Below, piece by piece: positions 17,292 to 64,000 of a stretch of DNA of 64,000 bases. This stretch comes from Nageia nagi. Lineage: Eukaryota; Plantae; Pinophyta. Made by a program: the position numbers and the translations under genes. A model generated the notes under the pieces. The model ran no database searches, was not told where the DNA came from, and saw only the letters and a program-made list of their open reading frames with translations. Where the stretch lies: the NCBI GenBank assembly GCA_050084985.1, contig JBITNC010000001.1:99820001-99884000 (forward strand). The letters run 5' to 3'. Numbering within the stretch: position 1 is the first letter of the stretch; each line of letters begins with the position of its first letter.

Positions 17292-20200
17292 AATTCTACC
17301 TCAATTCATACCTGGTGTATATGTTGCTACAGGGCAGATATAGAACTACAACGCAAGGGGAGACGGCTTGGATAGAGAAAGGGACCTATTCCATTTGGAA
17401 GTGCTACCCCAAATGGAAGCTAGAAAGGAGATGGGATAGTTTCACAATGAAGAACAATGGATAGGAGTATGAAATATATAGGGAGCTCAAGGGAGAGACC
17501 ACAGTTGCCAGGATCTCCAATTCAGCCCAAGATGCTTTGAAAAAGCATGGGGACTTCTTCCTCCATCACCAACACTATTCCTACATTCGTACACATGGGT
17601 TAGTCGTGCAACCATATCAGTTGCCAAGGTTCGTGAGTAACAGACTACTGTTGATGGAGATAATGAGGTAGTTGGCCTTTCTACATGAGCATGTGTGGCA
17701 AAAGAAATCTACCACATCTAATTTGCCGATTATTGTGGAAGAATATCAGTGTAAGTCCTGGACAGATGTGGATACCATGAGGGAAGAAATGGCCAAATTT
17801 AGTTTCAAGAAGATGCCTACAGCAGACCATTATGACCCTGACCACAGGATGCAATTGTTCTTCATGAAGGAGAGGAGGAAACATTACAAGCATAAATCGC
17901 TTGCAGACGAATGCTAATGATCAGCAACACCATGTGGAAGCCACTATCAATGAGAGACTCTCGCAGCATAAGGGAAGAAAACTTCAAGAGTCTACCTCCA
18001 AGATCACACAGTTCCCTCCAATTGTTGAGACACCAGCTGGACAATATGCATCTATGCGTGGTAAGAACCCAGTTGAGCAAGTTGTACAAGTACGGATCAC
18101 CATGGACGAGCATGACGCAAGAGAGCTCGAACGTGTGGCCACAGACAAGGTGGTTAGGTGTGTAAGAAACAAAAATCAGGATTCGTCTCCGCCATCCAAA
18201 CCACCTAGAGCCACAACAGCAAGGCCTTCACCCATTGTTCCACCATCTAGATCTTCATCTTCCAGTCACTTGTACAGACCGGTTGAGTCAAGAGGAAAGG
18301 GAGGTTGGAGAATCAAAAGACGAACAGGAAGTGAATGCAGCCTAGGATGACGAGATCCCAAATGCACAGCAACATGACTCCTTAAAGATATTGAAAGTGA
18401 TCCATAAAACAGCAGCATCAGAGTCGTCTACAGAGAAGGGTAAGGAGCCAATGTTGGAGACAATACAGAAGAGAGCTCGGTTGAAGAGAACTCCGCAGTC
18501 AAGAACTATAGAAGCTTCAGGTGAGCACGACAAAGAAGGAGAGAGACCCTCTAAGAGAGGAAAGAAGAATACCGTTACCATATAGGAGGCAGTTGTGGAG
18601 ACTTACCAACCATCACCCACAAATGAGTGGGGTGTCAATATGGTGGAATGTCTTGATGTGTTTAACATGAATGTCGGGGAAGAGTTTGAGGCGAAAGAGA
18701 AGAATGATCAGAATGGAGAGAGCTCCACTCGCCCAAGGAAGACCCAAACATCTGTGCATCTAGCTGATAATGCCATACATATCAAGACCATAATAGCTAA
18801 TAAGGAACCCACAACGTTTTGAAGACCTTAGATAGATCAACTAGATCATCAACACAGTTCCGATTGGTTTCGTTGGTCGGAAACATGCAATCATCTCCAA
18901 CACTAAGGCCATCATCAAGGTATGATGAAGGACAAAGAAATCAAAAGCCTCAAGAAAGAGTTAGCCACACAGAGGAAGTTGACTAGGGAATTAGAATCGG
19001 CTAAGGTGCCCACAGAGGATCTCCAAAAAATGAAACCACTCAAGGAGGGCATGATTGCAGTTAAGCAAAGGCATATAGATGAGGTCTTGGTAACAGTACA
19101 GTAGTTTACTAGGGCATTAGAGAGGGTAGCATTCGAGGAACAAAAGCTCAAAGACATCATGGTGGAGAGAGCCAATCTTCTCAGGATTTTAGATTCCAGA
19201 AGGCCCATGATCATGCAATTCGAGATGACATAGAATTGAAGGCCAAAGGATGTGAAGTTTTGTGAGGAGTATTGGTTTTATTTGGGAGTGGTTAATCAAA
19301 TAGCCACCTGATTCCAAGAAGTGCAGAAGGACATTCAGAAGCTCAACGATAAGGCAAACACTTGTCTTGAGCAAATGGAGTTCCAAGTCAGGTTCATTGA
19401 TGATGACACCACTATCCGAGATAGAGACATTGTAGTGGAAGAAGTGAGACACTTCCTGCACAGCCTGATCTTGACCAAGGCCATCAACACCTTTCAAACT
19501 GGCTATCACTTGGAGCACTTACTCAAAGCCCATGCTTGGAAAAAGGATATGCTGAAGATAGCGTTGTGTTGTGAGGAATGGACCAAAGCTGTAAAAGATG
19601 TTACATGGATTGGAGCTTACAGCCAAATTCTTAGATGATGACTTCAAGGGACGTGATGAGGCATTGGTCCCACCAACCGCTTAGTCACATTATTTGTTTT
19701 TATTATATTTAATAATTATTTTGAAGAAGCTTTGTTTTATTTGTTAATAAATTCCCAAGTTTGTGATGGATGAGGATTTGCTCCCACAAACTTGGATAAT
19801 GTCTTGTAATGCTAGGTGGCATATTTCTATTGGACCATACTTTATTTCTTAAAAATTGCAATTAGGGTTAGGGCAATGCTTAGGATTGCCAAGAAAACTA
19901 TGTTTTAGCCCATTTGGGCTCATTTGTAAGGGGATTAGACATTTTTTGCAAATTGGACTACTTACACAATACTTTCAAACTCGCAAGTTTCCCTATTTTG
20001 TAATTGTGATATAATTTCAAGAAATTGAAGTGAGTAATGTTTTCATTTGGAACTATGGATGTGAATGTGTGTTACATCTTTATGCTTTCTTGAATGTTTG
20101 GAACATTTTGTAAATCTTATAAAGGTGGACAAAACAATGCCTACAAATCTTTTTGAAACATTACAAGTAGTGTATGGTTGTGATGTTCCATAGTTTGCAC

Positions 20201-31561: not shown

Positions 31562-32346
31562 CCTAGTCACTTAAAGGAAGGCAAGGGTATCAAGTAGACT
31601 ATAATTGTATTAAGTAAAAACCATCATATCTATTAATATCATAGCAATTGTTGTTTGTGAGCAATAACAACCTCAGGAATTGGACTGAAGTTGGTGCACA
31701 TTTGATCAGCAAATCAAAACAAGGGCAGCACAACATGTCTCCATCCCATATGATTCCATGAATATAAGACTAAAGTAGATGATCAAATGCAGTATTACAT
31801 GTAAATATTAAATATGCCATATTACATGCAAATATTGAACTAAGGGTAGCAGATTTGATGGGGATTAGGACGTGTGTGATGTTCCCTTTTAGAAGACATT
31901 CTTTTTAAGGGTAGTTTTGTCGTTAGGAATATTTATTTATTAGTTGCATGTGTACTTAGGCATCATTGTAACCTGGGATAGTAGACATATGCATCCCATG
32001 GACCAATTGTGAGCCCCAAAGTGGGATGTAGCCCTGGCTAGACTTTGGCTAAGGATGCAAACCCTTAGTCATACCAGCTTTGTAGCTCAGATCCGGGCGT
32101 TAAAGGCCCTAGCAAGGTGACATCAGCATTTGGAGAGTGTATGCCCTAGATTTGATCCATTGAGCCAAACGTCAACCCTCTTGGGCCTATTTGGTTGTAT
32201 CTTGATCCATCATTGATATAATTTGAGACGTTGGCATTATTCTCTCAATTTGGCTTGTGCATTGGATAATTTGTGGCATGATTTTATTTTTTTAGCTCAT
32301 TTCCTGAATTATTGTTTGATTCGTTATTAATTTGGAATCATCACAG

Positions 32347-32358
32347 TGGTATCAGAGC
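32347..32358 (+). promoter_or_regulatory. Primer binding site (tRNA-iMet)
   Basis: TGGTATCAGAGC 1 bp after the LTR end CATCACA. Confidence 0.9.
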
Positions 32359-32627
32359 TTGATCCTACCATCCTATGAAGATTGAAGGAAGCAAGACATT
32401 CAGATCAGCAATCAGTATGGAGAAGATTGAGGCTACAATACAGGTGATGCGGAAATACTCAAGGAGTAGGTCCATTAGGACGTTTTGCAAGGAGCATGTG
32501 ATTTGCAAGGGGAAAAGGGTTGTGCACCAAGCATTTCTGGTCAATCACCACAACGTCCGCCTCCACCACCATGGCCGCATGACACTTTGGATCAGATCTA
32601 CCAAAGGAATCCTAAAACATTCAAAAG

Positions 32628-33700
32628 TGTAATACCCTTTTTACAAATATTCTATTTATGTACGTATTTGTCAGGATAGAGTTCGCCACAGGTTGTCCAT
32701 ATCGTGGCCACCCATGGAAATCTAGAAACATCTCCATATTGACCGCTTGAGATGTGACGTCCCACTCCTTGAGATAGGAGTTAATTATTGATTATATTTA
32801 GGTGTGAGCTTAGAAATTAATAATAGATTTAGTATGTTTTATGGGGGCCACTTGTATGAATTGTAATACATGATTCCAAGGCAATTAATAATTGTAAATG
32901 CAATATTAGTCTCCAATAATGAGGCGTTGCATATCTAGCCATTGGATCTTGTAATTCTTGGCATCCCTAGGCTATCATTGGACTTGGGGGTTAGAGTGAT
33001 GACTTCTAAGTGAGATCCGGACAGAGCAAATGTATAAATAAACATTGGAGCCTTATTACTGGATATACATTGATTATTATTACTTCTACATAGTCCAGAG
33101 GACAACAAGTCTTAGCGGTGCTAAGCAACCTTTCCTAGGCGCAGCGTCTAGAGGGCATTCAAGCTGAGGGATCCTGTCTATCTACGGCACTGGTGTAGCA
33201 CCTTTGCCCATCTAATGGTATTTTGAGGTATTGCTTCTACCTTCGATGGTTATCCAGAATCTGAGGAGGGCCCCTTCAATGGGGAGGATTCTTATTATGA
33301 GGAGGCGTATTGTCCCATGGTTCCAAAGTATTTGCAGAGTGAGAGCAAACATTGTGTTGTGCCCTAGTTGGCTCCTAAGAGGCCAACATCAACCCTTCTG
33401 GGCTTGGTATTGTATTCATTGAGCATTGAGCATTATATATATTGCCAAGGGCATTGGATCTCATCATTTGTATTGTCTATGTCATTCTTGTGCAAGCGTT
33501 GGATTACTATAGTCGTGTATACTTGTATTGGCCAAACGTTGGCATTATTGTATAGTTAATGCTTGTCTTTGATGTCCTAGCTCCAACGTTGGCTTTGTAG
33601 TGTTGTTTATGCAATTTTTGAATGCCCTAGATCAGATGTTAGGTTTGGATTATTATAATGTGCTAATTTGTGCTTGAGATTGCATTTTTGGATCATCACA
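32628..33700 (+). mobile_element. Solo LTR (1,073 bp) in chromovirus gag
   Basis: TGTAATACCC...GGATCATCACA with TSD AAAAG (32623-32627, 33701-33705). Confidence 0.92.
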
Positions 33701-33705
33701 AAAAG

Positions 33706-34349
33706 AGAGGTCAGCTCTTAGGATAACTGAAAGATCTTAAGCCAGAAGACCCCGAAGCCACACAAAGCGCATGGAGAGATTAAGGGTTTGGACAAAATCC
33801 CTAAATTCAGCAAAGAAGGCAAGCCAACGGCTAGGGTTTGGATGCATAAATTGAGGACCTTCTTTGCCCTCAATCGAATAACAGAAGAGGACTCCGTCCA
33901 TATCGCCATCATGCATTTGGAAGGGGTAGCGCATGAATGGTGGCACCATGGAGAGGATACCTAGGATCATAGCTTCATTTCCATTTTTGACGAGTTCAGT
34001 CAACGAATCCTGGATCATTTTCATCTAAGGGATGAGGGAAAATACTTCATGGATCTGGTAGTTGTTAAGAAATGGGAGGAATTGATTCATACATCCTGGA
34101 GTTTCAGAAAAAATTGACATGGTCACCCACGTTTCCCAGAAGGAGTTGATGTCTTTATTTGTGAAGGGACTAACGGAGTCATTGAGGAGTCTCACCAAGG
34201 CTTTCTCATCATTTTCACTCAATGAGTCTATCCAAAGAGCATTGTTGTTGGAGGAGGCTTCTAGGCTTAAGACATTTGCACAAGGTGATGAGAAAGAACG
34301 CCATGCACCAAGCCAAAATAGAAAACACTACAACCAGATCGGGAGTAAG
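33706..34349 (+). pseudogene. Chromovirus gag remnant
   Basis: KIPKFSKEGKPTARVWMHKLRTFF...IAIMHLEGVAHEWW...LFVKGLTESLR. Confidence 0.8.
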
Positions 34350-35453
34350 TGTGATGTCCCCCTTGCATGATTATAATTAATTGTGGAATCCAACGGATTC
34401 CTCTTGTAATATATTTTATTATTGCATTGTACTTTCATGTTGTAACTTGGGATAGAAGAGTTAATGGGTCAATGGACCCCACTATGAGCCCCAAGTGGAA
34501 TGTCTCCCTCCCAAGCATAGAATACGTGTTTTATTATACTTGGAGATCCCGATCTTGATCCCAGGTCTGTTTTACACTTAAGTGGATGGATGAGCACTTG
34601 CATACATGCGCCAACCTTGGGGAGACTCCTAGACCCCCACGTTGGCCCATTACGACACCTAGACCCCAAGCATCGTTCCTAGACCCACGTTGGGCATGTG
34701 TGACCCCTAGGCACCCACATTGGGAATTCTGGGCCCCTAGGAGGCTAATGTTGGGATTAAGGAGTCGGGTGATGACTCCAAGGTGAGATCCAGATAGATT
34801 TGAGTGTATAAAAAGGCATTGGAGCCTCATTGTTGGATATACCTAATTATTATTATACTTCATATCGTCTAGAGGACAACAAGACTTAGCAGTACTAAGC
34901 AATCCCCTAGGTGCAGCATCTAGGAGGGTTATTAGGCTGCAGCATTGGTGTAGCACCCTTGCCCATCCGATGGTATTTCGACTTTGAGCTTCTGCCATTC
35001 AGTTGGCCGCTAGGATCAAAGGAGGGCTCCTTCGGTGGAGAGGATTCAGGTTCTGAGGGAGCAAGGTTGTCCCATGGTTCTACTTGTCCGTCCAGCATTG
35101 AGGATACACGACTTGCCCTAGTTGGCTCCCTGGAGGCCAATGTCCAACTCTAGGAGCTTGGTATTATATTGTTGTTCATTTCATATCTTCTATACAGTCG
35201 TTGGGCACTTGGATCTCATATTCGTGTTGTGCATACTTGTCTATTGGCATCGTTGGATTACTTTTGCATGTATGTGTATGTACAAGCTAGACGTTGGCAT
35301 TTGTATGTTAATTAAACTTGTATCTGGTGCCCTAACCCTAACGTTGGCATATTGAGGGTTTGTATGCTTGTAATTGCTCTTCTAGACCAGACATTGGGTG
35401 CATACTTGTGTTTTGGGTTTAATTGCACTTGAGTTGTGTTTTGGATCCTTATA
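34350..35453 (+). mobile_element. Solo LTR (1,104 bp) at the end of chromovirus gag
   Basis: TGTGATGTCCC start, mutated end GGATCCTTATA, TSD GTAAG (34345-34349, 35454-35458). Core homologous to 32628-33700. Confidence 0.85.
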
Positions 35454-35545
35454 GTAAGCGGGTAGAATAGCCAGATCCGAAGGGCACACTGTTGTAGTAG
35501 AAAAAGAGGGGTGAAAGGAAAATTTCTCTGAAAGGGAGAACAACT

Positions 35546-38450
35546 GTGGGAAGGATGGAAGTGCTTCCGCAATTAGTGTTTGCACACAAAATGGAGAAAA
35601 TCATTAGGAGAGGAGACATTGTTTGGGGAGCAACCTTTCTCATGAAAAAAGGCAAGCCAATGTCCATAAGCCAAGAAGAAACTACACCCAACGAAGAGAT
35701 CCAAGATATTCTAGAAAAACTCAAGGATGTCTTTGGGGATATGCTTGAAGGGCTACCACCAAAAAGGGGATTTGAGCACATCATCGAGTTGGAGCCAGGA
35801 TCGAAGCCAGTCATGTTCACTCCATACAGACACCCACGCATCTACAAAGATGAAATTGAGCAGACCATCAAGGAATTGCTTGTTATGGGCTTCATACAAC
35901 CTAGTTCCAGTCCTTTTGCTTCTTCAATTGTCATGGTGAAGAAGGATGGGACCATGAGGATGTGCATTGATTATAGGGTGCTCAATAAGAAGATAATCAA
36001 AACTAGGTATCCTATCCCACAGGTGAACGATCTCATTGATGAGCTCCATGGAGCTAAATACTTCTCTAAAATAGATCTAAATTCGGGTATCACCAGATCC
36101 GCATGAGGGAAGAAGACATCCATAAGATAGCTTTCAAATGTCACTTTGAGCATTTTGAATTCTTGGTTATGCCATTTGGATTAACCAACGCTCCAGCTAC
36201 TTTCCAGTCCATCATGAATCAAGTTTTCAGGGAGCAATTGAGGAAGTATGTGCTAGTGTTCTTTGATGACATCCTCATTTATAGCCAAACGTGGAAGGAA
36301 CACTTGAAACACTTGGATTCAATGTTGGGGATCTTGCAGCAGCAGAAGTTCTATGCCAAGAAGTCAAAGTGTGACTTCGGGGTGACTGAAGTTTTGTACT
36401 TAGAATACATTATCAGCCAGGAGGGAGTTCAATTGGATGAGCAGAAGATCCACACCATCTAGGAATGGCTAGTTCCCACCACACTCATGCACTTAAGGGG
36501 ATTTTTGGGCTTGTGCAACTACTATCAGAAATTCATCCGAAGTTTTTCACACTTAGCAACACCCTTGATGCAGCTGACCAAGAAGGATGCATTTGGTAGG
36601 AGCAATGAGGCTCAAAGAGAGTTTGAGGTGCTTAAAAGGGTAATATGCACATGTCCTTGTTTGGCAATTCCTGACTTCTCTTTCCCATTTACTATTGTAT
36701 GTGATGCGTCCAAGTATAGGGTAGGGTTGTACTCATGCAAAAGGGGAAGCCAATTGCCTTTGAAAGTAGAAAGCTCACCCCTACAGAACAAATTCTCAAT
36801 GTGTACAATAGGAAAATGTTGGCCATAGTGCATGCATTGGCAAGATTCAAGCAATATTTGGTATGTGAATAGTTTGTGGTCAAAATTGATCACAACAACT
36901 TGAAATATTTCCTTGAGCAATCAGATCTCAATGAAAAGCAGCAGAAATGGTAAGTAAATTTCAGTCTTAAGATTTTGAGATTGAATATATCAAGGGTAAG
37001 AAAAACATAGCGGTTGATGCACTCTCACGCAACCCTTCCTTCTACTCTCTTTCTAATATTACTGCTGATTGGAAAATGTTGATTATAGCTGAATGTGCCA
37101 AGGATACATTTGCTACTAACATCCTTGAAGGACACTTGAAGGATGACAAGTTTAGAGTAAGAGTAGGGCTGATCCTATACAAAAACAGGATTTATCTTGT
37201 GCCAGGATCGAAGATGAAGGAGAAGATCATAGCCGCCATTCATGATATGCCGATAGCAAGACACCCCAGCATAGTCAAAACATACAGGGTCGTGAGGGAG
37301 AGATTTGCATGGAAGGGACTCAATGAGGACATTTTTAGGCACATAAAGTAGCATGCTAAATGCCAGGAGAATAAAATAGAGAATGTACACCCTCCAAGAC
37401 TGTTGCAGCCATTGTCGATCCCTACACATAAATGGGAGAGCATCTCCATGGATTTTATTACAGGATTGCCCAAGATGCAACGAAAGGACTGCATCTTTGT
37501 TGTAGTGGATCGTTTGACAAAATATACTCACTTCTTTGCCATCACCATCACCTACATAGTCGTGCAAATGGTTGAATTGTTTTTCAAGGTGGTGTTTAGA
37601 TTGCATGGGTTGCCAAAACAAATTGTAAATGACAGGGACAACAAATTTATGAGCGTGTTTTGGCAAGAACTCTTCAGATTGAGTGGGACAAACTTGGCAC
37701 ACAGCATCGGTTATCATCCTTAGATAGATGGACATACAAAAATAGTGAACAAATGGTTGGAAGGCTACTTGAGATAGTATATTATAGGATAGCAACAAGC
37801 ATGGATCAAATGGCTACACCTAGGGCAGTATTGCTACAACACCACTCATCATCTTTCCATACAAATGACACCCTTCATGGCGTTGTATGGATATGAAAGC
37901 ACCAAAGGCCAAAGAGTTTTTGTAGAACAGTTAGGACATCATGAGAACACTCAAAGAAAACCTTCAGCTTAACCAGAACCGTTAGAAAAAGTTTGTTGAC
38001 CAAAACTGGATCGAACGCACATTCGAAGAAGGTGATATGGTGTATTTGAGGTTGCAACCCTATAAGCAATCCACTCTCAAGAGGAAGGGGGCAGAAAAAC
38101 TTCAACCAAGGTTTTTGGACCTTACAAAGTGTTGCGTAAGAAAGGGAAAGAGGCTTATGAGTTAGAGCTACCCCATGGTAGCAAGATACATAAAATCTTC
38201 CATGTGTCATGTTTAAAAAAGGCACTTGGATGGCACGTAAGTCCTTCATTAGACCTACCACCACTCGATGAAGAGGGAAGACTAACCTTGGTCCATGAGC
38301 GCATCTTGGATACTAGAGAGAAGAAGCTAAGATCTCGGATGGTTAAGGAGCACTTGGTAAAATAGAAGGACCTACCTAAAGAAGATGCCATGTGGGAAGG
38401 GTCAAAGATACTTACACATCCGGCTTTGCATTTTTTGGGGTCAAGCAATT
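35546..38450 (+). pseudogene. pol: pol pseudogene: RT, RNase H, integrase, chromodomain
   Basis: [86 protein letters not shown]...WE. Many stops and frameshifts. Protease not seen. Confidence 0.93.
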
Positions 38451-40892
38451 TGGGAAGGGAGGATTGTGATGTTCCCTTTTAGAAGTCGTTCCTTTTGAGG
38501 GTGGTTTTGTAGTTAGAAGTATTTATTTATTAGTTGCATGTGTACTTAGGAATCATTGTAACCTAGGATAGGAGACATATGGGTCCCATGGACCAATTGT
38601 GAGCCCCAAAGTGGGATGTCTCCCTCCTAGAGGTAGATTAGGAGCATTTAAGTGTAATGATACAGATCCCAAGGCACAACGTATGATTAGAAGGTGAGCG
38701 CATGATTGGTGTGATCCCGAGGTATGATTCGGACACCCAAGCATGACATCTCTTTGAGGGGTGTGTGGACGCCCAACCTTGAGGGATTCCTATGTATTTG
38801 GTTGGCGCAGTATTGAGGAGGCATCTTGAGTACATTTGACATCTTTTATCTTCGAAGTGGCAGCACCATTTCTTGGGCCTCTCGTTGGACAAAACCTAAC
38901 ATGGAGAAGAGTTTAGTGGGGTATAGCCCTCGCTAGACTTTGGCTAAGGACGCAAACCCTTAGTCATACCAACTTTGCAACTCAAATCCGAGGGTTGAAG
39001 GCCCTAGTAGTGTGACATCAGCATTTGGAGAGTGTATGCCCTAGATCTGGTCCATTGAGCCAGATGTCAACCCTCTTGGGCCTATTCGGTTGTATCTTGC
39101 TCCATCATTGATATAATTTGAGACATTGGCATTATTCTCTCAAACTGGCTAGTGCGTTGGATAATTTGTGGCATGATTTCATTGTTTTAGCTCATTTCCT
39201 GAATTATTGCTTGATTCATTATCAATTTGGAATAAAAATAATTTGAGAACATCACTAATGAAAACTCCAGAGTCAAACTGTTTTTCCCGGGACAATAGGT
39301 GATATATCACCTATCTCCAAGCCAACCTGTATGCAACGTAGGTGACTCAACAATTCCATAACACAAGGAAAACACAGTTTGCTATATCCAATGTCATTCC
39401 CCATAATTTTTTGAAATAACATGATAAATTAAAGACTTTGGGACATACACAACCCAGAGAATGTTGAATCAAACCTTAGAAAGAATATTTAGTCCCAACG
39501 TGGGATATCATAAAAACAACTTATGTGATACATAAGCTAGGACTCAAATTCAATGAATATTCATACGGCATCAGTGTGGGACCTTTATTCTCTTTCTGCC
39601 AAAGATTGTATAATTGCTAACACTGAGATGGTGAATAAAAAGTGCCAAGAGGTGAATTCAATGTTCCAATCTCTGATATGTGGTGGTTGCCCCCGACGAT
39701 TGTCCTCCATGCACGATGCGTTAAGGCTCTAGGTAAACTTTTCTCTGTACAATGTTATTTTTAGTCGCTATTTTATAGATAGTGCTTAGCTATTATGCAC
39801 TGTTATTGCACATGTAGAGCGGGATTAATTGGAATTTGTTTTTCTATTTTTCTTATAAAAAGAGGATGGGAAAATATTCAAAATATAATAATTTAATAAA
39901 ACTTTCATATTTCATATTTATTCGTGTATTTATTTTTATTTTTATTTTCAATGATATTTTTGATATTGCATAATAAGTAGAGATGTTTTAAATATTATAT
40001 GAAATTATAAGGATATTTTGGATATTTTCCTGGATGGCAGTCAATAGTTAAATCTGAATTATTTTTCTATTATTTTATTAAAATTAAACCTGTGGCTATA
40101 GCAGTGCGTGCAATGTGTATGTACAGGTTTAATTGCATTTTTTTTCTATTTTTTTTCTAAACAGAGGATAAATCTTTTGGTGAAAATTTGAAAGTAATAA
40201 ATGCTAAAGCTCAATTTGCCCAAACCAGGTGGACGGTGGTAGTTAAATGTATGATTTTTCCGAGTTATTTTTCTGCTATTTTGTTACGATTAAAAGCATG
40301 GCTGTATGCCGTGGGCAACAGAATTGTTTTTTCTATTTTTCTTATAAAAAGGATAGACCTTTTGGTGAAAATTTTGAAAGTAATAAATAGTCAATTTTTT
40401 TTAAGTTATTTTTCTGCTATTCTGTTACAGTGTTACTAATTTCTACCAGAAGGAAAAACTGCTGTTACAGAAATATAATATTCTATGTTGATATACTCTG
40501 GGTGCCCCATCTTCTTTAGTTGATATCAATAACACTTCATGTCTATTTTAGACCGTTCTAGTTTTTTGATACTCGGTATATCACTGCGGTCAAAAACTTC
40601 AGAACACTTTAATTCTAATTGCAAGATTCTTGGATGTTTGCGTGCAGCGAAATCTTCCCTTGAATCGCAGAACTATAATACAAATCTCGTGGCACAAAAT
40701 TGCAGTCATCTTCACTTCAGTTATTGCACCCTTCAAGCCCAGTTCCTATTTCCCCAACACCTGTTTTTGCATCTTTGTGCATCTCATTCAAATCCAGTTT
40801 CTTTGTTTCTACTGTGAAAGCCCACTCATATGTGATGCCTTAGTTTCTAAATGTCTTCATATAGAACAAGAAAATAGTAGAAATTCAAATAC

Positions 40893-41252
40893 CTTTAAGA
40901 ATCCTTCTAGTCCTTCTGCCACGAATCCGAACCAGCCTCCATTCTTCTGAACAGAAACCGTGGCATCTTCACCCACCGCGTCCGTCGTAGCCACGGCGGC
41001 ATCCGCTAGAGTGTAAAGGAGGTCCTCCGCTCTGCTCAGCACCGCTTGGACATGCTCCGCATAAGCATCCATATGGCCAAGATCGGGAATCTGATGCAGG
41101 CTCAAATTCACCCTTAATAACCTCATCTTCCGAGATGTAAATTGATGAGGACAAATTTCTCTTCTTCTTGAAGAGCTTGTAGATATAAAAGAAGAATGAA
41201 GACGGCATGGCCTGCATACAGGCAAGGATGCTGAAACGCTTGTAGTCGCCAT
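40893..41252 (-). CDS. ALB3: ALB3/PPF-1 chloroplast membrane insertase (YidC/Oxa1/Alb3 family), exon 1 (120 codons, includes transit peptide)
   Basis: ATG at 41252. Ser/Thr/Arg-rich N-terminus, then the ALB3 signature RAEDLLYTLADAAVA...QKNGGWFGFVAEGLEGFLK. Phase-0 donor AAG|GTATTT at 40893/40892. Confidence 0.93.
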
Positions 41253-41494
41253 TGTTTGCAGAGGAGGAGCTGCTGAGGAAGCAGGAGGGAGAGAGAAGAT
41301 ATCGTTCGGACCATTCAACTCAATATCTAAAGGAATTATCCGTTTACATGTGGGGTTAATGGTTTTGTTGAAACCACCTCATACGCTGGTCCGTTGTTGG
41401 TCAGGGTTCGAACACGGGACATTTACCAATAGAAACAAGTATCTTTAGTATTTTTCTGTGTTTTTTTTATGATGCTATATCATCGTATGAAGGT

Positions 41495-52520: not shown

Positions 52521-55500
52521 TATCCTGTAAAAATGAGAGATTTGCTTATCGAATGACCATGGCTTATAAATAATTATTAGTAGCATAATGAACGATAACA
52601 TTCAATTTTTGTCAATATACCAAATATTTAAACATTTAGTGACCTTGCATTTTAATATTTCAATTTGCATAAATTTTTGAAGTAAATCCACATCATTGAC
52701 AATGTGGTATGCCTAAAATTCAATGATCATGTATTCAACAATTTTGATCCTTATCTATAAAATATTTCATATACACGAAAAAATAATCGACATGAGTAGA
52801 TATGCAATAAAATTTCAATATGGCCTAATTACAAATAATTTATAGCAATTGCACATCATTGGTAGTGTGAGGTTTTTCATATCAAGTGCAAAAATTTGAA
52901 ATATATTCAATTTATGATCATGTATATCATTTTGCATCATATCATATTTGAACAACATTACCATTTGTCATAATAGTTTCATGATATAGCATGAATGAGC
53001 AATATTTGACTGTATATTCAATTTGTCCTTCCATCATGTGTAAAATCAAAAGAAGCATTATTTAGAACTTTTAAGAATATGCAATCATATTATATATTTG
53101 AAAGTACACACAACTATGTCTTTTCCATACTGCTGGCAGCGTTTAAATGGATGACTACATCTTCTAGATAAATAGCGCATCCAATTAACAATAAAATATG
53201 AATTTTCAATCATATAGCAGTGATAAATCATGAACAATTTCAAAAATGAAAAATTATTGTGCAATTTAAATGATATTGATCTTTAGCAATAAAAATTCAT
53301 CATTTTCAATAATTCAATAATCAAAGTGATCATTCAATAAAATATGTAGCAATAAAAATTAAAGTAGCTCATTTAGAATTGCTATAAATTTTAAAGAAAC
53401 CATGCCGTTGGAGGTATCCATTTAACATAAATAAATTTAAATAGTGCCAATAAACAATTGTTAATTAAATATGCACTCTAAAGTAGGCAAAGGGATGATT
53501 TTACCATATGAGAACATTCGAGCAGAGATCGAATGACCAATTTGAAGAAAAGCACACTACTGGTGGCATGAAAGCAATAAAATAATTTTTTGAAAAAGAG
53601 ATCATAGCCTAGTAAAATGATTTCAAATCTAATGCATACATGAAATAATATATCTAAGAAATAATGACACAACAAGAGAATGCTTTAGAGTTTATGTGGA
53701 AAAGGGGAGATATATATACAAATCATTTGAATTTTTTCATTTTATTTTATTTTTAGTTGTCATTATCTTATGCTTTGGTGATTTTGACCTGGCGATACCC
53801 TATGGACTTGGCAACTTTATTATGCTCCCATTCACCATGTAGACTTGCAAGAGGTGCCCCTAGTGTTGAGTTTCATTACCCTTGGGTTTTGTAGCATGAT
53901 GGGTTCTTAATCATGAGACTTTTGGTGCCATTTGATTCTTCTTTGGTTGACTTACCTACTATCTCCATCTAACGTACCAACCTTCCCCTGATAGGAATAC
54001 ACTTTGAAGGTTGGTACACATTTGCTAACCTAGCCACTCATTACTTCCAGTCATGATTGCCCTCCTTGGTTAGCCAAAGTGCCAACTACAGTTCGAGATC
54101 CAATAGGGAATCCCATAGGATCTAGTGTTTTACCATAGATATATGGTAGAGAGAGATGCACCTACAAGGGTGCAGGTTATACCAGCATGAAGGCTTACTT
54201 GGTAGGAGCCTTAGACACATGATGTGATAGTTAATGTTTGCATGGCATCAAGAGTAGTTTAGGGGTATGCCTCATGGTGTCATAGAGTCCATCCTATGAA
54301 TTTAGGGATGGATGAAGATGAGGAGGAGGAGATATTATGAGTGATGGGTATTCCAAGGATGACCCTTACTAGGTTAATAATCTAATGCATGACATTCCTA
54401 TGTAGAAGGGGGAGTGGCTCCAGGTTGGCCATGCAAGTTGAGGTTGTAGCACCAGGTAAAAATACTAACCACACACATAGTTTTGTTAAATTAATATATA
54501 TGACTAGTGAATTAAAAATGTGTACCTTATGTGTAGGAGAGATGGAGGCACGAATTATGGTCCTCTAAGCAAAAAATGAGAGGCTCAAGCCTCTTGAGGT
54601 ACAGGTGGTAACTTTGCAAGCCAACCTTACAACTCGAGATACACAGATTGCTACACTAGAGCAATTTGTGAAGATACTACAAGAGAGGATGGTGATGCCC
54701 CCACTAAATGAGTAATGGGCATCCATGCAGAGCCAAATGGATAAGATCAAGTAGAAGAAGCACAAGATAGCCACTCTTAGGATGAAGTATGATAGGGAAA
54801 TGGCCCTATTGATAGATTAAGGCATTACTGTTAGCGGTATATCAATGGAGTATCAGTATTAGGGGATAACGATAGAAACCAAAGAGTGAGGTAGAGGATA
54901 AGGGATACTACTAGTAGTGGGAGTAGTGCCCACCAGTAGCTAGGCTAGTTTTGGATCCACCCCATATTGTAACATTATGATTCTTTTATATATATATGAT
55001 CTTTTTGGCTCAATTTTAGTTGCATTATGGATGAATGTGAATGTGTTAATTTATATTTGCACAATGTGTTTGTATAAAATAATAAACAACAAAGTACAAG
55101 TTTCAATAATAAGCAATAAACCATTTAATGAAGAACCATGTATGCAATTTGTTAGTTTTAATGAATCCATAAAATGAACTCCAACAGATATCATTGTAAT
55201 GTCAGATATTAACCATGATCAATCACTAAAAATTCAAACATGATAATGAAATAAATAAGTAAACCTCTTAGCTAGATCCCAAGGTACCACAACGAATAAA
55301 CACCAATTTTTCTTTGTTAACCCTATTGAATCTATGTTTTTCATCATTTTAATGAGTCATGAATGAACTAAGCATCAATGAAATACTATTATTTTTTATT
55401 ATGTCTCGGGAAATACATGCCATTAGTGGCCAAAAAATAGAGGGAATGTTGCTATCAGCATGGGACTGAAGCACAACAATGATAAAATGAAGAAACAGTC

Positions 55501-55855
55501 AAAGAATAATTTTTAATGGCACCAAAAAAAGATAATAACACATTCATACAATGAGTAATAATTCATAATGGCTAGACAGATAACAACCCACCTAATGGAC
55601 ACTACAATTATATCTTTTATGATTTAAGATATAATTTTATATACCTAGGATGATTTCACAACTCAGACACACTTTGCATATGCAATAACAAAGAGAGGTA
55701 CCCTTGGTTTCACTTTTTGCATGCTATGGATGACATGATGGTAATGTTGTACATCATTAGTGGTGTCCATTTCCTTTACTTTTTCATTATTTGGTAACTA
55801 CCATTTTTGCATGAACATTTATTACCAAAATAATAATTCAAACAATCTGAAGTGC

Positions 55856-57486
55856 TTACCATGCCAATATATCCTCTCGATTGTAAAGGAGGTAGGGATT
55901 TGTGAATACATCAAGTTCTCCATTATCTTGATGTATGGGTCCATCATTTATGACAATATTATCATCCATTATGATTACCTCTTTATCAATGAAGTCTTGA
56001 ATAATATGCCTTAAAGTCTTGCAATTTCTTTTTAGATGTCTAGGTACCTTGTGATAATTGCAAAATTCCTCATATCTAAAATTCTTAGGCACACCATTGG
56101 GAAATTTAAGCTCAATAATAGGTGGAAGCTCAATAATGTCTTCTTTAATTAATACATTAAGAATATTATCAACAATATCAGTTAATGGTGTAACCTTTCT
56201 TTTAGGTTTTTTGTTAGATTTTTGCTTTTGGTCAAATTATTCACTTCAATTTTATTATTATTTTTAGGATTATTAACCTTATTTTCACACATTGGAACCT
56301 TGTTATCACACATAGCATACAAATTTTTAATACATGCCTCTTTTTTGAATAAAACATCCATTATTTCACCTAATGTGATATTGTGGTTAGAGATAGCAAA
56401 TAGTTTATATATAGGCAACAAAGCATTTGAAAAAGTATCTTTCAAATGTTGTTTAGGTATAGCAATATTATTAGTAGTTAATTTCCATACTTTCATGAAA
56501 TCAAATACAAATTGATTAGGTAGTTGCTTAATTTTTCTCAAATCCTTAAATTGAACTTTTCTAGCAATATTATATTTGAACTACTGTAAAAATTGATGAA
56601 TCAAATCCTCATATCTATCAATGCTCTTTTCAGGAAGGAGAAAGTACCTTTTTAATGCACCATCTTTCAAACTATGCAAAAATAATTTAGCAAGAAAATC
56701 TCTATCATGCATATATTCCATAGCTTCTTCCTGAAATTTTCTAACATGCATCTTAGGATCTTGCAGACCATCAAAATTTGTGAACTTAATACTCTTCTTC
56801 CCAGTAAGTACTTTGGATATGATTCTATTAGTTAAAGGTCTTTTTAAACAAAACAAGAAGTCATGTTCATCATTTCCAACCAATTCTTCTTCTAGCTTTT
56901 TTATTTTCTCCTCAGTTGAAGTATCTTTTAGGGGTGGTGGAGGGGTTTGAGGTGGAACATTTGCATTTCTAATTTTATTTTATTTAAACACAAAAAATGG
57001 ACCTATTCTATTCACCCTTTCATGTTTTATCTTATCAAGCAAGTTTACTAGGAATTCTATTTGCTTCTCATAAGGTTCTAAATGATAATTTACAATATCT
57101 TGAACTTCATGGAGGATCCTAGCTTTGATATTGTATTCTTATAATGACCAATCATGATGTTTCTTATAAGTATCATTAATAAGATTTGTAATTTGTTATT
57201 GAAATTTAGAATCAGAATCATCATCTTGGATAATATTCTTACCTTTAGCAAACTTACCTCTTTCGAATTGGTCAAGTTTGAGAATTAGGTCTTCATAATC
57301 TTTGTCATCATCATTATCATCCACACCACCATCCTCAACATTTTCCTCGCTTGAGGGTTTTATTATAGATTCATCCATTGTAGGAGGATCTTCCTATTCG
57401 ATCTCATTCATGTTGCTAGCAGCGTGTTCACAAATTTGAACACCATCAATTTCATCCTTTGTGGGTGTTGATTGAGATTGTGTAAT
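55856..57486 (-). pseudogene. gag remnant
   Basis: IKFTNFDGLQDPKMHVRKF...AKLFLHSLKDGALKRYF...YEDLIHQF, and knuckle-like FCNYHKVPRHLKRNCKTLRHIIQDFID. Confidence 0.82.
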
Positions 57487-57636
57487 ATGTGCGCCTGGAA
57501 CAATCTTAACCAAAGTAGTTCACGAACAGACTGTAGGACGCAGCCTGATCTCCGGAGAAGGCCGGTTCCTTATCCATTGGGCAGAGAAAAAGTAACAGGA
57601 AAGAGATAAAAAGAGTAGGGAGCGAGAGATTTAAGC

Positions 57637-57708
57637 AAAAGGATAGGGTAACAAGAAAGGAAGTAAAAGGATAGGGTAACAAGAAAGGAAGTAAAAGGAT
57701 AGGGTAAC
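57637..57708. repeat. 28-bp tandem repeat (~2.6 copies)
   Basis: AAAAGGATAGGGTAACAAGAAAGGAAGT repeated. Confidence 0.85.
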
Positions 57709-58249
57709 GAGAGAGAAAGCAAAGGGGTAGATCACTAGTTCAGCGCGGGCTTTCGCAGTGTGCGAAACCTTGGCCTGAATCTAGTGTCGCAGCCACAGAA
57801 CAAGTCCTCACTCTCTGAATAGCTCCCCAGCTTCTACTCTACCATGTAGCAGACACAGTTATACTAGCAACCCGCAACTATTACTCAGGAAACAAGCTAA
57901 GCTGCCACAATGTAACCAAATTAAGAATAACAATTACGAGTGCTAGACAAGAAAGGTCAAGATGGTTTCATAGTACCGGACTGAAGCTACAGGTCTTCGA
58001 GAACAAATGAAAAGGGCAATACTAGGCTTCCGACCCTAGTTTCTCTTTATTTTCATATATTTATACTGTGTTAATAACAGTTACAAAATTACAGAATAGA
58101 AACGTTTACAAAACGGCCGCAAGATTCTGGCCTTCTTGAACTGATATCACCTACATATGACACTTGGCCGGCTGTTACAAAATTGGGCAGATCGCCGACG
58201 ATTCGATTCCCTGATGATTGTACTCAGGCATCTTGCAGACTTACTCTCT

Positions 58250-58760
58250 TTCGGGATTTCTTAATTCTATGGCTCAGGCTCTTCAATCTTTCTTTGCGGG
58301 CCTATTTTCCTCCGAGACTCGGTTTCATTCACCAATATTAATCTTGTTTCTTTCCCCTTCGCCTGACGTCAGCCTTGAATCTCCGGACTTCTTCATTCAC
58401 TGGCTCCGGACACTAAATTACTCCTTGATGATGTCATCCATTCTGGGCTCCGGTTTGCTTTATGAATGCAAACTTCATATTTCCTTGTGACGTCACCTTT
58501 GAATCTCTGGAATTTCCCGCTCGCTGGTTCCGGATACTAAATTTCTCTTTGCTGATGTCATCTGTTCCGGGCTCCGGTTCTTATTCAAAATGTGAACGTC
58601 ATTTCGCCTGTGACGTCATTTTTCTACCCTCCGGAATATTTTCCTTTATGGCTCCGGATACTAAGTCGCTACCTGTCGACGTCATCTCCTCCGGACTCCG
58701 GTTCCATTCAAAATGTGAACGTTGTTTCCCCGTGACGTCATTATTTCATTTCTCCGGAAT
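58250..58760. repeat. ~123-bp tandem repeat (~4 copies) rich in TGACGTCA and TCCGG motifs
   Basis: TGACGTCA at 58364, 58488, 58611 and 58733. Variants TGATGTCA/CGACGTCA at 58429, 58553 and 58677. Confidence 0.88.
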
Positions 58761-59093
58761 GCTTTGTTTGCTGGAGAACTTATGCTGACTTTATCTTTTC
58801 CGGAACTTGGTTTTCACCCCAAAAAATAATCATCTTATCCTCCGCACGTCTCCACTTTATTCCGGAAAACTTTACTCTGACTCCGGGCTGCTTTATCTGC
58901 TCCGGAAAAAACTCCCGGAGATCTTCGAATGAATCCGTAGGGGCAGGTAGAGTACACCGTGGCTTTACTTCAAGGATTTATTATGGAGGAATCTACATTA
59001 TGGTGACTTCTGGGGGGAAAATTTCGCCTTTATCAAGGAGGAATTTAGAACCCAAACCTTTATTTCCATGAATAAAAAAAAATGGACTTGCCT

Positions 59094-62000
59094 TCAGTTC
59101 TGTAGACTCAGGATTTGCTGGACTTTACTCCAGTCTGCTGGGATCCCGGAAAAATCTTTTAGCCTCGCATGAGCTAAGGCTGTATGGTTCAACACTTCGT
59201 AAGATACATTGGCATGTTTCCTCAATAATTGCTGTATGCGAAGTCCGCCGTCAGCCAAAGAATCAAAGAATTTTACGAAATTGGTTTCGTCAAAGGAAAC
59301 CAGGAGCGTATCGACATCATCAGTACTTTGAATCCTATTCTGTAGACTATTCAAAAACTCAGCCTCCGAGACAAGCGAGCCGTTGCTTTTCCATAACTCT
59401 GGGATTCCGGACGCATTCAACCCTTGTATCTCTGATTTCAGATTTTCCATTTCTTGCGTCCGACGCAGGACATTACTCCGGATCTCCTGACAAACCCATT
59501 TACCCCTCCCTGGGTAATCAATCGCCGACATGAGCTCCACTCGGTCACCAATGTTATATGACTGCAATTTCTCATTCGAGAGGCTGTTTAGTCTTTTATT
59601 TGCCTGCTTAGCCTGTTCTGAAATGGGGTTCAGAATACTTTCACATCTTGTGACCTCAGCTTCGAGCCTTTTGAGTTCTGATAAACATGACTCCACATAG
59701 TCCCTTAGATGAATTAAGTCTTTGACTTCCTGCATCCTCAGCTCCCAAAATTTTTCTTTTGTATTTAACAGAAAAGATTTGTCTACTTTATTTGCATTCA
59801 GCTTTGCTTGGAGTTCCACCATGTTAGCGTTCAGACTGCTGATCTCCGCTACTCTGGCAGTTATTTCCGCATCTCTTTGAGCGATGATAGCATCCTTTTG
59901 GCTCAGCTTATCCGCTGTAGGAGCCATCGCTAAACTAGTCTTCAAAATTGATATATTATTCTCCGCAGCCTTCAGTTTTATTTTATTCGTGTCTAATTGC
60001 TGCTTCATGGCTTCATGGGCCTTTTGCAGCTTATGGTATTTGACCTCTAACTTGGTAAGTTCTGATATGTTGAGATCGACAGCTGTTTGTAGGAGCTCGT
60101 TCTTATCACTCCTAGATATGCTGCGGGTGTCAATCTTCACCCGGGTGTTCATGGATGACAGATCACTTAGCCCTTCTTGTGGATCCTGGACAATAGCCAT
60201 TTCCAGCACCTTATGCTTCGGATCCATGGATGTCCGGAACCTTACCGGATTTTCCGGAAGTGGAAGTTTTTTCGCTTGCTTCTGCATCCATGACTCCTGG
60301 CCTTGTTTCATCTGCTGATACTGCTGCATGATGCCATCCACGGATACCTGCTGCCCTGATATCATGATGAAGGGGGATCTGGCGCTCAACTCCTGAGATG
60401 AAGCGGCTACGATCTGTTGAGCTGGTGTCACGGGACTAGCTTGGCTGGCCCCTGGGTTACTGCTTCCGGAAAGATCCACTGCAGGAAGTGTTGAGATAGA
60501 GAGAGGAGCGGACGATGGAGGTGGGGAGGGTTGGGGTGATGAAGGTATTGTAATGATGCTTGCGAGGGGAGGAATTTGTAGAATGGGTGTAGGAAGAGGG
60601 GGGCTCTGCCGTTGGGTGGACGGTGGTGAAATGAGAGATGGTATGTGTGCAGCTGGAATAGCTGCTGGAATTGGGGGAAGGGTGATGGAAACAGAAATGG
60701 GAACAGTATGAGCCGGCAGAGCAGAAGAAAGAGAAAGAGGGGAAGAAGGAGTAGGAAGCGTACCTGAGGGCGTCGGGCTCCTCCTTCTCCTTTTAGGTGG
60801 TGGCGGTAGTGATGCCTTCTCCATCTGTGTTTTCCTTTTGGCCATGTAGACTCTTTCTGGCCTCTTAGTCGCCGTCTCCGTGGAAATCTCCCTGATTTCC
60901 TCCTCATGTTGCTTTTCCCGAGCTGGTGCTTGAGACATAGCATGCCCCTGCTCTTCACTGTCATCAGAATCTTCACCCGTAGGAACTTCTGTGGGATGTT
61001 CCAATTCCCACATCTCCTCAAATTTGTCGTCTAGATCAGATTCTAGAGGAGTGTTCCTATTCCCAGACTCAATCCTGTACTGGGTAAAGGCAGCTATTTT
61101 TTCTTCACTCCATCTCTGATCTCTTAGTGTTTTCAAAGCCTTTTTTGAGATGGAGTCGGTCTTTAGGTCAAAAACGGCTTTCCTGTTATAGAAATTCAGC
61201 CATGGCGGTAACAAGTCCTGGGTGATTACGGCGGTGGGCATCACCTTGTCTTCCTGCTCCGGATTTCGCCACTTAAGCAGCTCTGGTTTATTTTCGGCTC
61301 TAAAAGCCGGGGAATTGGGTTGGCTTCTCAGCTTCTTGCCAAAAATATCCTCTGGATCATATAGACAATATGAGCTCAATTCCTTCAATTTTAGTTTCAA
61401 TAATTTGCCCCTTAAATAGTCGCTTGCTCCCCGGCTTTGGAGCACCAGGTCATGCACTTTGTGGGGGAGAGCATAGACTCCTCTCTTTTTGGCGGCAGCT
61501 CCGTATTTGGAGTCAATATAATCCATCTGTCTGGCGTATTCCACACTGAAAATCCAATCAGTCACATGAACTGGTAGCAAAAACGGGGCCCCGGAAAACC
61601 CATACAGTCTTATGAAAGTCCCATTTTCCGCAAAAAACCAGTCCCCGACCTCTCCATGGGGCATGCGGAGGTATAGTTTGGAGGCTGTTGATAACCTCAG
61701 AACTGTGGGGGTTAATAGACCCATTGCTGGAACTAAAAATTTCTCCACAAAGGAGTAGTAATTTGCCGAAGACCTCACCTCCTCGGTCCACTTGTCCACT
61801 GGCTTCTGAGACCCATCTTCATTACTCTGGACCAGGGTTAGATTTTTGAAAACCTCGGCATTTTGATGAATCATCATCCAGACAATGTATGATGTATAAG
61901 CGAAATGAAATCCATCGCCAATCCTTGCTAGCTGTTCCGATATTCCATCCGAAAGGGCACTAGACCAGTCATACATTGCGGGAGAAACTGGGTGAGAAAT

Positions 62001-62576
62001 CCGATAAGCTATAACTAACCTTGAAGGTGAGACATATCTATCTGTTTCCTCCCCTGCTGCTATGGCTAGCATGGACAATAGTAATTGCAGATGTGCAGAA
62101 AAGTTTGAGAGTGGGAGTTCAGAACTGGGGAACTCTCTAAACTTTGCGGAACCGGCTGTATTTTTATTTAGCCAAGCAGTGATATTTGCTCTTAGGTTGG
62201 CGCTAGGTGTGATATACCAATCAATTTGCATGAGGGGAACCATAGGAGGGGGTGGACTGAAAGCCTCCGCTATTGCAACAGAATCCAAATTTAGGATAGT
62301 TCTACCTTGCAAGTCTCTGACTCTCCTAGTTGCAGGATCGAATGCCCCTCTTATGATTTCTACCAACTCGGGAGCAGGAAAGCATCTATGAGGGATGAAA
62401 TGCATGAGACCCGAACCCATTGGGGAATGAGCTATATGATTGAAGCTGAAGTTTGGGCACTTACCTTCCGCAGTGCCCTTGGGGTTCTTGTTCGGGGCTG
62501 TAATCTCCGTATCCCACAATAACTCCATGGAATCTGATACCTTCTTTGCCGTCTTCGCCACTGATCCTGAGCTCAT
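59094..62576 (-). CDS. Intact 1,160-aa retroelement accessory protein of unknown function (copy C)
   Basis: Uninterrupted ORF. First ATG is 62576 (the track start 62612 is TTG). Conserved N-terminal ~430-aa domain homologous to copies A and B, acidic tract, NLS-like PKRRRR, Pro/Ser-rich linker, long heptad-like C-terminus. No RT, RH, INT or PR motifs. Confidence 0.88.
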   Translation of the reverse strand: MSSGSVAKTAKKVSDSMELLWDTEITAPNKNPKGTAEGKCPNFSFNHIAHSPMGSGLMHFIPHRCFPAPELVEIIRGAFDPATRRVRDLQGRTILNLDSVAIAEAFSPPPPMVPLMQIDWYITPSANLRANITAWLNKNTAGSAKFREFPSSELPLSNFSAHLQLLLSMLAIAAGEETDRYVSPSRLVIAYRISHPVSPAMYDWSSALSDGISEQLARIGDGFHFAYTSYIVWMMIHQNAEVFKNLTLVQSNEDGSQKPVDKWTEEVRSSANYYSFVEKFLVPAMGLLTPTVLRLSTASKLYLRMPHGEVGDWFFAENGTFIRLYGFSGAPFLLPVHVTDWIFSVEYARQMDYIDSKYGAAAKKRGVYALPHKVHDLVLQSRGASDYLRGKLLKLKLKELSSYCLYDPEDIFGKKLRSQPNSPAFRAENKPELLKWRNPEQEDKVMPTAVITQDLLPPWLNFYNRKAVFDLKTDSISKKALKTLRDQRWSEEKIAAFTQYRIESGNRNTPLESDLDDKFEEMWELEHPTEVPTGEDSDDSEEQGHAMSQAPAREKQHEEEIREISTETATKRPERVYMAKRKTQMEKASLPPPPKRRRRSPTPSGTLPTPSSPLSLSSALPAHTVPISVSITLPPIPAAIPAAHIPSLISPPSTQRQSPPLPTPILQIPPLASIITIPSSPQPSPPPSSAPLSISTLPAVDLSGSSNPGASQASPVTPAQQIVAASSQELSARSPFIMISGQQVSVDGIMQQYQQMKQGQESWMQKQAKKLPLPENPVRFRTSMDPKHKVLEMAIVQDPQEGLSDLSSMNTRVKIDTRSISRSDKNELLQTAVDLNISELTKLEVKYHKLQKAHEAMKQQLDTNKIKLKAAENNISILKTSLAMAPTADKLSQKDAIIAQRDAEITARVAEISSLNANMVELQAKLNANKVDKSFLLNTKEKFWELRMQEVKDLIHLRDYVESCLSELKRLEAEVTRCESILNPISEQAKQANKRLNSLSNEKLQSYNIGDRVELMSAIDYPGRGKWVCQEIRSNVLRRTQEMENLKSEIQGLNASGIPELWKSNGSLVSEAEFLNSLQNRIQSTDDVDTLLVSFDETNFVKFFDSLADGGLRIQQLLRKHANVSYEVLNHTALAHARLKDFSGIPADWSKVQQILSLQN

Positions 62577-63112
62577 TCTTGTTCGCTTGGCACCTTGCGC
62601 TGTGCTTATCAACCTTCTTGGGCCACTGCTTATGCCTCAAACTCGGATTCTCTTGCTCTGTTTCACAGTTCCTGGCGATGCTCAGTAAGCGCTAACTTTG
62701 CAAATTGGTGAGCCAAAACTTTCTATGAATACTAGCATATAGGTGTCTTGGTAAGTAGTGCTCTGGGTCTTTTAACAGCTCACTTGAACGCATGATCTTT
62801 CGAAGCGAGGGAAATCAACTCATGACAGCCGCATTAATAACTGATTTGCCGTTTTACGATCTTTTCGGGAACCTTGGGATTTGATTGCATGTACCCTCTT
62901 GGAAACTTTTAATTCTGCCGGCGCAAAAAGGTTCCACTACTATTTACGTTACGCTAGTAGTAAATTACTGACAACAACCGCTCGAAATAAATGCAACATC
63001 ACACTATTTACAATATGTATACAAATCAAATTCCTTCTTCCCAATGGTCACTTTCCCGCGCTGGTGGGCTTCAGAAAAATTACTGTGTCCGCTGGTGTGG
63101 AATTCATCAAGT

Positions 63113-64000
63113 TCACGTTCCGGCTTTGTCATCCGCTACGCCAGGCGGAGGAATACCTCCACTCCTCAACAGATACTCTTGGTATTGAAAAATAGGGCAG
63201 GTTGTTTGTTCATGAGCATCATTACAAGCCAAACACAACCCATTAGCCGCCCCGGAAGTGGAAGCTTGGTCCACGTCCTCATTCAACACATGTTGAGCTT
63301 TCTCTACAGCAGGGTAGGGATATCTTCTGGCATTATTTTGTCTGGTCAACACGGTAATCTGGTTTGCCATATTTCTACACAAATTCTGGAGTTCCTGAAT
63401 TTCTGTAGATGATGCTACTCCTTGGTTCATATTAGGCTGATGTGGAGCTGGTAAGGCCAAGGGAGCTCTAGGAATTGGCAAATTTGACGACCAGGGTTGA
63501 ACAGGGACAGGAATATTAGCCAGAGGTGGGACTGAACTGATTACCGGAGGTCTCAAAATTTGCTGTTGTGTTGTGGTTATTGGGAAATAGGGCATTGGCA
63601 TACGGCTTGGTAATTTCCCAACTGCAATAAGGCATGATTCAGCATATACTGCTTGTCTATAGACCTCCGGGAAAGTATTCACTCCGGAATTTTGGATTTG
63701 CAGAGAGAGATCCGGAGGAAAGGCTCTCAGATAATACATCAAAGCTTGAAACTGCTGAGGCCTGACTGGCATGGGTACTCTCGTCCATGTTTTCTGGAAT
63801 CTAATGTTAAAATCCGGGATGTTCTCTTGTTCAAACCTTTTGATTGACGTGAACTGAGTGAGCAGAGAAAAGGGATCCCCTAGTTCATTAAACTCCAGGA
63901 TAAAGGGCTCTGCCAGTTGAGCCCAGGTACTGATGGATCCATTAGAAAGGCCCCTGTACCAATCCAGGACCTTTCCTTTGAAAGACTGAGCCAGTAATCT
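63113..64000 (-). CDS. gag: gag (5'-partial, open to the window edge)
   Basis: Frame is open from 64000: RLLAQSFKGKVLDWYRGLSNGSISTWAQLAEPFILEF...ENIPDFNIRFQKTW, with Cys/His knuckle CLACNDAHEQTTC. Confidence 0.88.
   Translation of the reverse strand, partial: RLLAQSFKGKVLDWYRGLSNGSISTWAQLAEPFILEFNELGDPFSLLTQFTSIKRFEQENIPDFNIRFQKTWTRVPMPVRPQQFQALMYYLRAFPPDLSLQIQNSGVNTFPEVYRQAVYAESCLIAVGKLPSRMPMPYFPITTTQQQILRPPVISSVPPLANIPVPVQPWSSNLPIPRAPLALPAPHQPNMNQGVASSTEIQELQNLCRNMANQITVLTRQNNARRYPYPAVEKAQHVLNEDVDQASTSGAANGLCLACNDAHEQTTCPIFQYQEYLLRSGGIPPPGVADDKAGT

Follow-up and report, generated by a model that had tools for sequence, protein, structure and literature searches.

Conifer genomes are made up mostly of long terminal repeat (LTR) retrotransposons, and in TR-GAG elements gag is the sole gene between the LTRs. 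In gymnosperms an aRH domain between protease and reverse transcriptase (RT) is the mark of the TatII group of elements according to the reference survey (PMC6317226), and two surveys of Tat evolution also treat the position of this domain (PMC10508981, PMC13468544). The supplements of the reference survey list a sense 3′ extra open reading frame (ORF), with no CDD domain given, in 26% of 27 TatII elements, its primer binding site (PBS) types are mostly tRNA-Asp or Asn, and the target-site duplication typical of the group is 4/5 bp (PMC6317226). Among DNA transposons, the VANC proteins of VANDAL elements are described as binding short motifs clustered in the tandem repeats of their own transposon and removing methylation (PMC5735166). 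Here we describe an element at the end of a 64,000-nucleotide stretch of DNA (positions 99,820,001 to 99,884,000 of contig JBITNC010000001.1; the whole stretch is called the window) that carries gag and an intact 1,160-aa ORF without pol. It belongs to a young, non-autonomous subfamily that arose by deletion from an element likely of TatII type, in a family where the ORF was already present, and this gene may help the element to escape host silencing.

Results

Anatomy of the element and loss of pol

The element was placed in its DNA context by comparison with related contigs, many of them from air metagenomes, including two sister elements (L001 and L002) that were confirmed out of 92 pattern matches in a metagenome scan. 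Its parts, all on the minus strand, are as follows.

57466..58997, minus strand: 3′ LTR of 1,532 bp, TG...CA (terminus comparison and a contig departing at 57466)
58360..58760, minus strand: tandem array within the LTR (TRF 58400-58747, period 124, 2.8 copies)
59001..59021, minus strand: tRNA-3′-end-like motif ending CCA, 3 nt before the LTR TG, where a polypurine tract (PPT) is expected
59094..62576, minus strand: sense 3′ extra ORF, 1,160 aa (open frame and homologs)
61317..62429, minus strand: N-terminal domain of the ORF, aa 50-420
62577..63039, minus strand: spacer, homologous to L001 sequence 3′ of the integrase stop and holding most of a purine run at 63042-63031
63040..63075, minus strand: deletion junction (blastn alignment to L001; bridged by contigs)
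63113..64000, minus strand: gag, 3′ part (PF03732 match; homology to sisters)
past 64000, outside the window: gag 5′ part, PBS and 5′ LTR

The gag frame runs open for 295 aa from 64000 to 63113, continues past the window edge and matches PF03732 Retrotrans_gag (E 7.7e-7, Pfam HMM); it is separated from the ORF by 536 nt (63112-62577). An initial annotation of the window had described these two open frames, with gag ending at 63113 and the ORF 537 bp further on the same strand, and had seen no pol between them. Our measurements agree. Pieces of sister pol, used as queries, match nothing in 57.4-64 kb, and their matches in the window are confined to an unrelated element at 35.8-37.0 kb. The annotated boundary at 57488 has to be moved to 57466, where a contig departs from the window into PBS-like sequence and fixes the LTR 3′ end well; the LTR 5′ start at 58997 was set by eye, from its terminus alongside those of L001 and L002.

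L001 shares its LTR and 81% DNA identity in gag with the window element (gag dN/dS 0.12, and 0.10 against L002). Its gag is followed by protease, an aRH-like stretch, RT, RNase H and integrase, and all of these contain stops. In the sisters the gag frame continues towards protease, whereas the window gag is cut short by a frameshift near 63125, just ahead of the deletion join, and a gag homolog that is 84-85% identical (P0152) extends ~108 aa past its stop. The blastn alignment to L001 stops at 63075 and restarts at 63039, which places the join at 63075-63040. About 4.5 kb is missing, comprising the remaining gag-pol (protease, aRH, RT, RNase H and integrase), and just 3′ of its integrase stop L001 rejoins the window spacer (63071-62811 corresponding to L001 14984-15243). 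The stretch 63071-63046 is weakly alignable to both sides of the deletion and is possibly microhomology.

The L001 contig stops ~440 nt 3′ of integrase, and its positions 1-2097 are the 3′ end of another copy, with the ORF C-terminus (47% identity, aa 1003-1160), array and LTR. Because the spacer is common to the window and L001, we infer that autonomous copies carry the ORF 3′ of pol. The contig ends (1-115 and 15327-15452) exactly repeat internal sequence in inverted orientation, probably as assembly artefacts, and were left out of the analysis. The aRH domain was recognised in L001 only, at the end of the protease frame and before RT, RNase H and integrase (RVT_3, E 0.004, below the curated cut-off), so that by domain order the family is likely TatII. 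A PBS-like site, presumably of Arg type, lies ~10 nt past the 5′ LTR end in both sisters (L001 ~8985-9020, L002 ~9475-9510). This spacing exceeds the 0-5 nt used in the PBS search of the reference survey.

A shared junction and a young subfamily

Contigs were aligned from 8 of 24 runs listed, covering 7 samples, and the statements that follow hold among the pieces listed (32 of 14,095 and 27 of 417). Three contigs span the junction: X7 (62919-63382, 8 differences), X10 from the same sample (62753-63297, 13 differences and 1 gap) and X14 (62794-63350, 6 differences); X12 does so only at the borderline (63010-63137, 9 differences). Pieces of X2, X12 and X16 end their match at 63127 and are 14-20% different, and the sole loose end displayed past that point resembles, by eye, sister gag-pol. 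Since several contigs cross the junction, the deletion marks a subfamily and not a single accident. The initial annotation had held that its reading would fail if the junction were unique and sister copies carried pol there; sisters with pol do exist, but other copies have the same junction. A second subfamily, ~85% alike, differs over a 158-nt stretch of the leader upstream of the ORF (window 62587-62758; X2, X3, X12).

The closest contigs are ~0-2% different from the window, and the copy is therefore young relative to its neighbours. The element thus has what defines a non-autonomous subfamily, namely no pol, the same deletion in multiple copies and a pol-bearing relative, and the young, pol-less lineage that had been proposed is borne out. 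The CpG richness offered as a further sign of youth stands only in part: the observed/expected ratio is 0.13 in the immediate flank (55000-57465) and higher throughout the element (gag 0.39, ORF 0.54, spacer 0.86, LTR U3/array 1.04, tandem array itself 1.22), but gag does not exceed the old elements at 8-23 kb (0.21-0.52 per kb). We have great confidence in the anatomy, in the LTR limits, in the common junction and in the loss of sequence relative to a sister with pol. Very probably these copies are mobilised through the common LTR and PBS by pol that autonomous relatives provide in trans.

The LTR, its tandem array and a candidate plus-strand priming site

The longest purine run of the spacer, GGGAAGAAGGAA at 63042-63031, had been taken as a possible PPT, with the 3′ LTR beginning before the ORF. 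In favour of such a giant LTR are the rank of this run, the lack of a classic PPT before 58997 and the position of the window's own 5′ LTR outside the view. But in L001 the run aligns just past the end of integrase, and no ORF match lies upstream of gag in the 5′ LTRs of L001 and L002, the two that were seen. Because the 3′ LTR spans 58997-57466 and the sister 5′ LTRs are without the ORF, the ORF is internal to the element and outside the LTR. The giant LTR is largely refuted, as is a one-off deletion or assembly error, since contigs of independent samples span the junction; we consider either scarcely credible.

In the 400 nt before the LTR at 58997, purine runs are 7 nt long at most. Instead, the CCA-ending motif resembling a tRNA 3′ end stands 3 nt before the LTR TG, both in the window (59021-59001, minus strand) and in L001 (~653-673). 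The candidate tRNA would presumably be of Arg type. The L001 form ends in the same 8 nt as a PBS primer reported in PMC9245474. With two copies, a partial match and a fitting sense and position, a tRNA could prime the plus strand here. The terms PPT and PBS are absent from the texts of PMC10508981 and PMC13468544. A Rfam scan of a U5 stretch at ~57580-57540 (minus strand) found no match. The same stretch presumably recalls a tRNA D-arm and anticodon arm.

Related arrays are present in all three sister LTRs seen, and in 4 of 4 LTRs CpG is better retained in the array than elsewhere in the LTR. The window array holds four TGACGTCA sites against one in the other 57 kb. Of the 19 TCCGGA palindromes of the element, 10 fall in 58200-58997, compared with 3 for the remainder of the window. 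Age-related CpG loss confounds both comparisons.

The 1,160-aa ORF

In the predicted protein a globular N-terminal domain is followed by an acidic stretch (aa 501-550), a nuclear-localisation-like basic motif KRRRR (aa 595-599), a Pro/Ser/Thr-rich linker (~aa 600-740) and, in a crude scan, coiled-coil-like stretches at ~aa 855-885 and 965-1000. HMM scanning gave the ORF no Pfam family; DUF1985/DUF287, the families of VANC, were found neither in it nor in 127 of 127 members of its homolog alignment (A1) nor in P0105, and none of these matches PF10536 (PMD-A). A search with residues 1-500 gave 150 homologs (E <=0.001) among 1.84 billion representatives, mostly fragments; a 1,010-aa homolog aligns over aa 58-629 (20% identity, E 1e-15). 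Three homologs are named, one from Cryptomeria japonica and two from Taxus chinensis, and one homolog bears a PMD-A-type name only as an automatic cluster name at 0.87. In the predicted structure, the part from residue 53 to 291 (window 62420-61704) can be superposed on residues 325-631 of VANC21 at 8% identity (PDB 9lnk), and the N-terminal domain probably falls in the PMD/DUF1985 structural group.

The position of the ORF, sense and 3′ of integrase, is that of env, and its coiled-coil-like stretches would also suit an env-like membrane protein moving particles from cell to cell. Against this, no segment reaches transmembrane strength in the crude scan (best 19-residue Kyte-Doolittle mean 1.43), the basic motif is nuclear-localisation-like and a match to a viral structure is absent at E 0.001 or better, so that we consider an env-like role very improbable.

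Other features of the window

Decayed distant homologs of the ORF lie at 12888-12214 (minus strand, HMM E 3e-34) and 15438-17971 (plus strand, E 9e-11 and 1e-22), with tandem arrays at 7768-8435 and 13964-15206; sister pol pieces used as queries found no match near them, and pol-less ORF carriers may be common in the genome. The element itself sits inside an older, CpG-poor, gag-like remnant (55859-57460, minus strand, by eye) that has no Pfam match. A separate Ty3/gypsy element occupies 31868-39214 (plus strand), with remnants of RT, RNase H and integrase at 35.5-37.7 kb; its LTR-like repeats are ~90% alike. An open, CpG-rich frame at 40860-41378 (minus strand), without a Pfam match, presumably resembles the first exon of a host gene for a chloroplast membrane insertase (ALB3-like).

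Discussion

We tentatively propose that the element is a pol-less derivative of a likely TatII retrotransposon and that the product predicted for its retained gene, a nuclear DNA-binding protein of PMD/VANC type, would target the array in the LTR of the element and keep the family transcribed. In a chain built by analogy with VANC, which is possible but which we hold more loosely still, the protein would be made from spliced or internally started RNA, oligomerise by its coiled coil, go into the nucleus, bind the clustered palindromes of the LTR array and locally oppose silencing; such anti-silencing would explain why a pol-less lineage keeps the frame open.

The family ORF is under constraint, with pN 0.31 versus pS 0.92 in its C-terminal part. 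A benefit to the pol-less copy is plausible but unproven, and several points call for caution. Among the 26 best-supported differences listed in the window ORF, 14 are nonsynonymous and 12 synonymous, which is near neutral, and an unselected ORF would remain stop-free 29-61% of the time at 0.5-1% divergence (29-37% at ~1%) but only 1-3% of the time at 3.5% (counting stops only). A deletion of pol spares a 3′ ORF by mere position. Furthermore, host proteins with the PMD/VANC-type fold were first described as silencing factors. The ORF could accordingly be a passenger, kept since the deletion spared everything 3′ of integrase, serving the autonomous family or nothing and not yet decayed; non-autonomous Retand clusters without RNase H and integrase likewise retain their TRP28 ORF (PMC11963269, Table 1). 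We think this unlikely: among the contigs listed, those of the junction type are 1-7% diverged versus 14-20% for those that break off, which points to an old split. Contigs 10-13% different also span 300-700 nt of the ORF free of gaps, although these may come from copies of either pol status. Somewhat less probable again is that the ORF is selected while its VANC match reflects a chance helical arrangement or a fold reused for RNA/cDNA binding or integration guidance.

If the ORF does have a PMD/VANC fold, it bears on whether PMD originated as a retrotransposon or a host gene, a question called fully open in PMC5418596, and on whether retrotransposons have anti-silencing factors of their own, which the literature consulted shows only for VANDAL DNA transposons. 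The reference survey assigns no domain to conifer Tat extra ORFs (PMC6317226). Because a single element provides both the intact protein and its candidate target array, a direct test is possible. A broader scenario, which is speculative and rather doubtful as a whole, is that conifer Tat elements have a sequence-specific anti-silencing protein of VANC type, evolving together with the LTR array; that the gene is of enough value for pol-less subfamilies to keep and spread it, exchanging anti-silencing for the enzymes of their partners; that the PMD/VANC fold as a retrotransposon gene predates angiosperms; and that the plus strand is perhaps tRNA-primed.

Among known systems, the element is close to gymnosperm TatII (PMC6317226; 'structure 2' in PMC10508981), which it resembles in the aRH position of its sister, the sense 3′ ORF and a likely gymnosperm host. 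Unlike TatII, the window copy is without any pol, and its PBS is presumably of Arg type instead of mostly Asp or Asn. The initial annotation had cited TR-GAG elements as an established non-autonomous type. Like TR-GAG the element has LTRs and gag without pol, but it holds a second intact 3.5-kb gene internally and has a known pol-bearing sister. Its origin is not TR-GAG-like, for it derives by deletion from a family that already had the ORF. The pol-less architecture itself is of a known, ordinary kind, because multi-copy Retand derivatives of Tat have also lost pol domains while keeping gag and a 3′ ORF; they share tandem arrays, and DNA binding has been proposed (PMC11963269). As described there, Retand differs in being an angiosperm group with an antisense ORF bearing PF04195 and in keeping RT, by which its clusters were mined. 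VANC21 and VANC6 of VANDAL offer the best structural match of the N-terminal domain, in an accessory gene of a transposon that likewise has tandem arrays with repeated short motifs in its non-coding parts (PMC5735166; PDB 9lnk), and a coiled coil is predicted for VANC21 (PMC13547354). Their carrier, however, is a Mutator-like DNA transposon described as dicot-specific rather than an LTR retrotransposon, and with 8% identity and no DUF1985/DUF287 HMM match, binding and demethylation are ascribed to the window ORF by analogy. PMD-A, found in angiosperm Gypsy elements (Ogre) and in host MAIN/MAIL1, is also a retrotransposon 3′ ORF and, should the fold match be correct, would share a structural group with the window ORF. 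The window ORF, however, is without a PF10536 match, Ogre PMD ORFs are antisense and, in the literature consulted, PMD-A is described from angiosperms only (PMC5418596, PMC6317226). Within the literature searched, what appears to be new is the structural link of a widespread retrotransposon ORF of gymnosperms to VANC and PMD, its pairing with an LTR array, and a tRNA-like site in place of the PPT.
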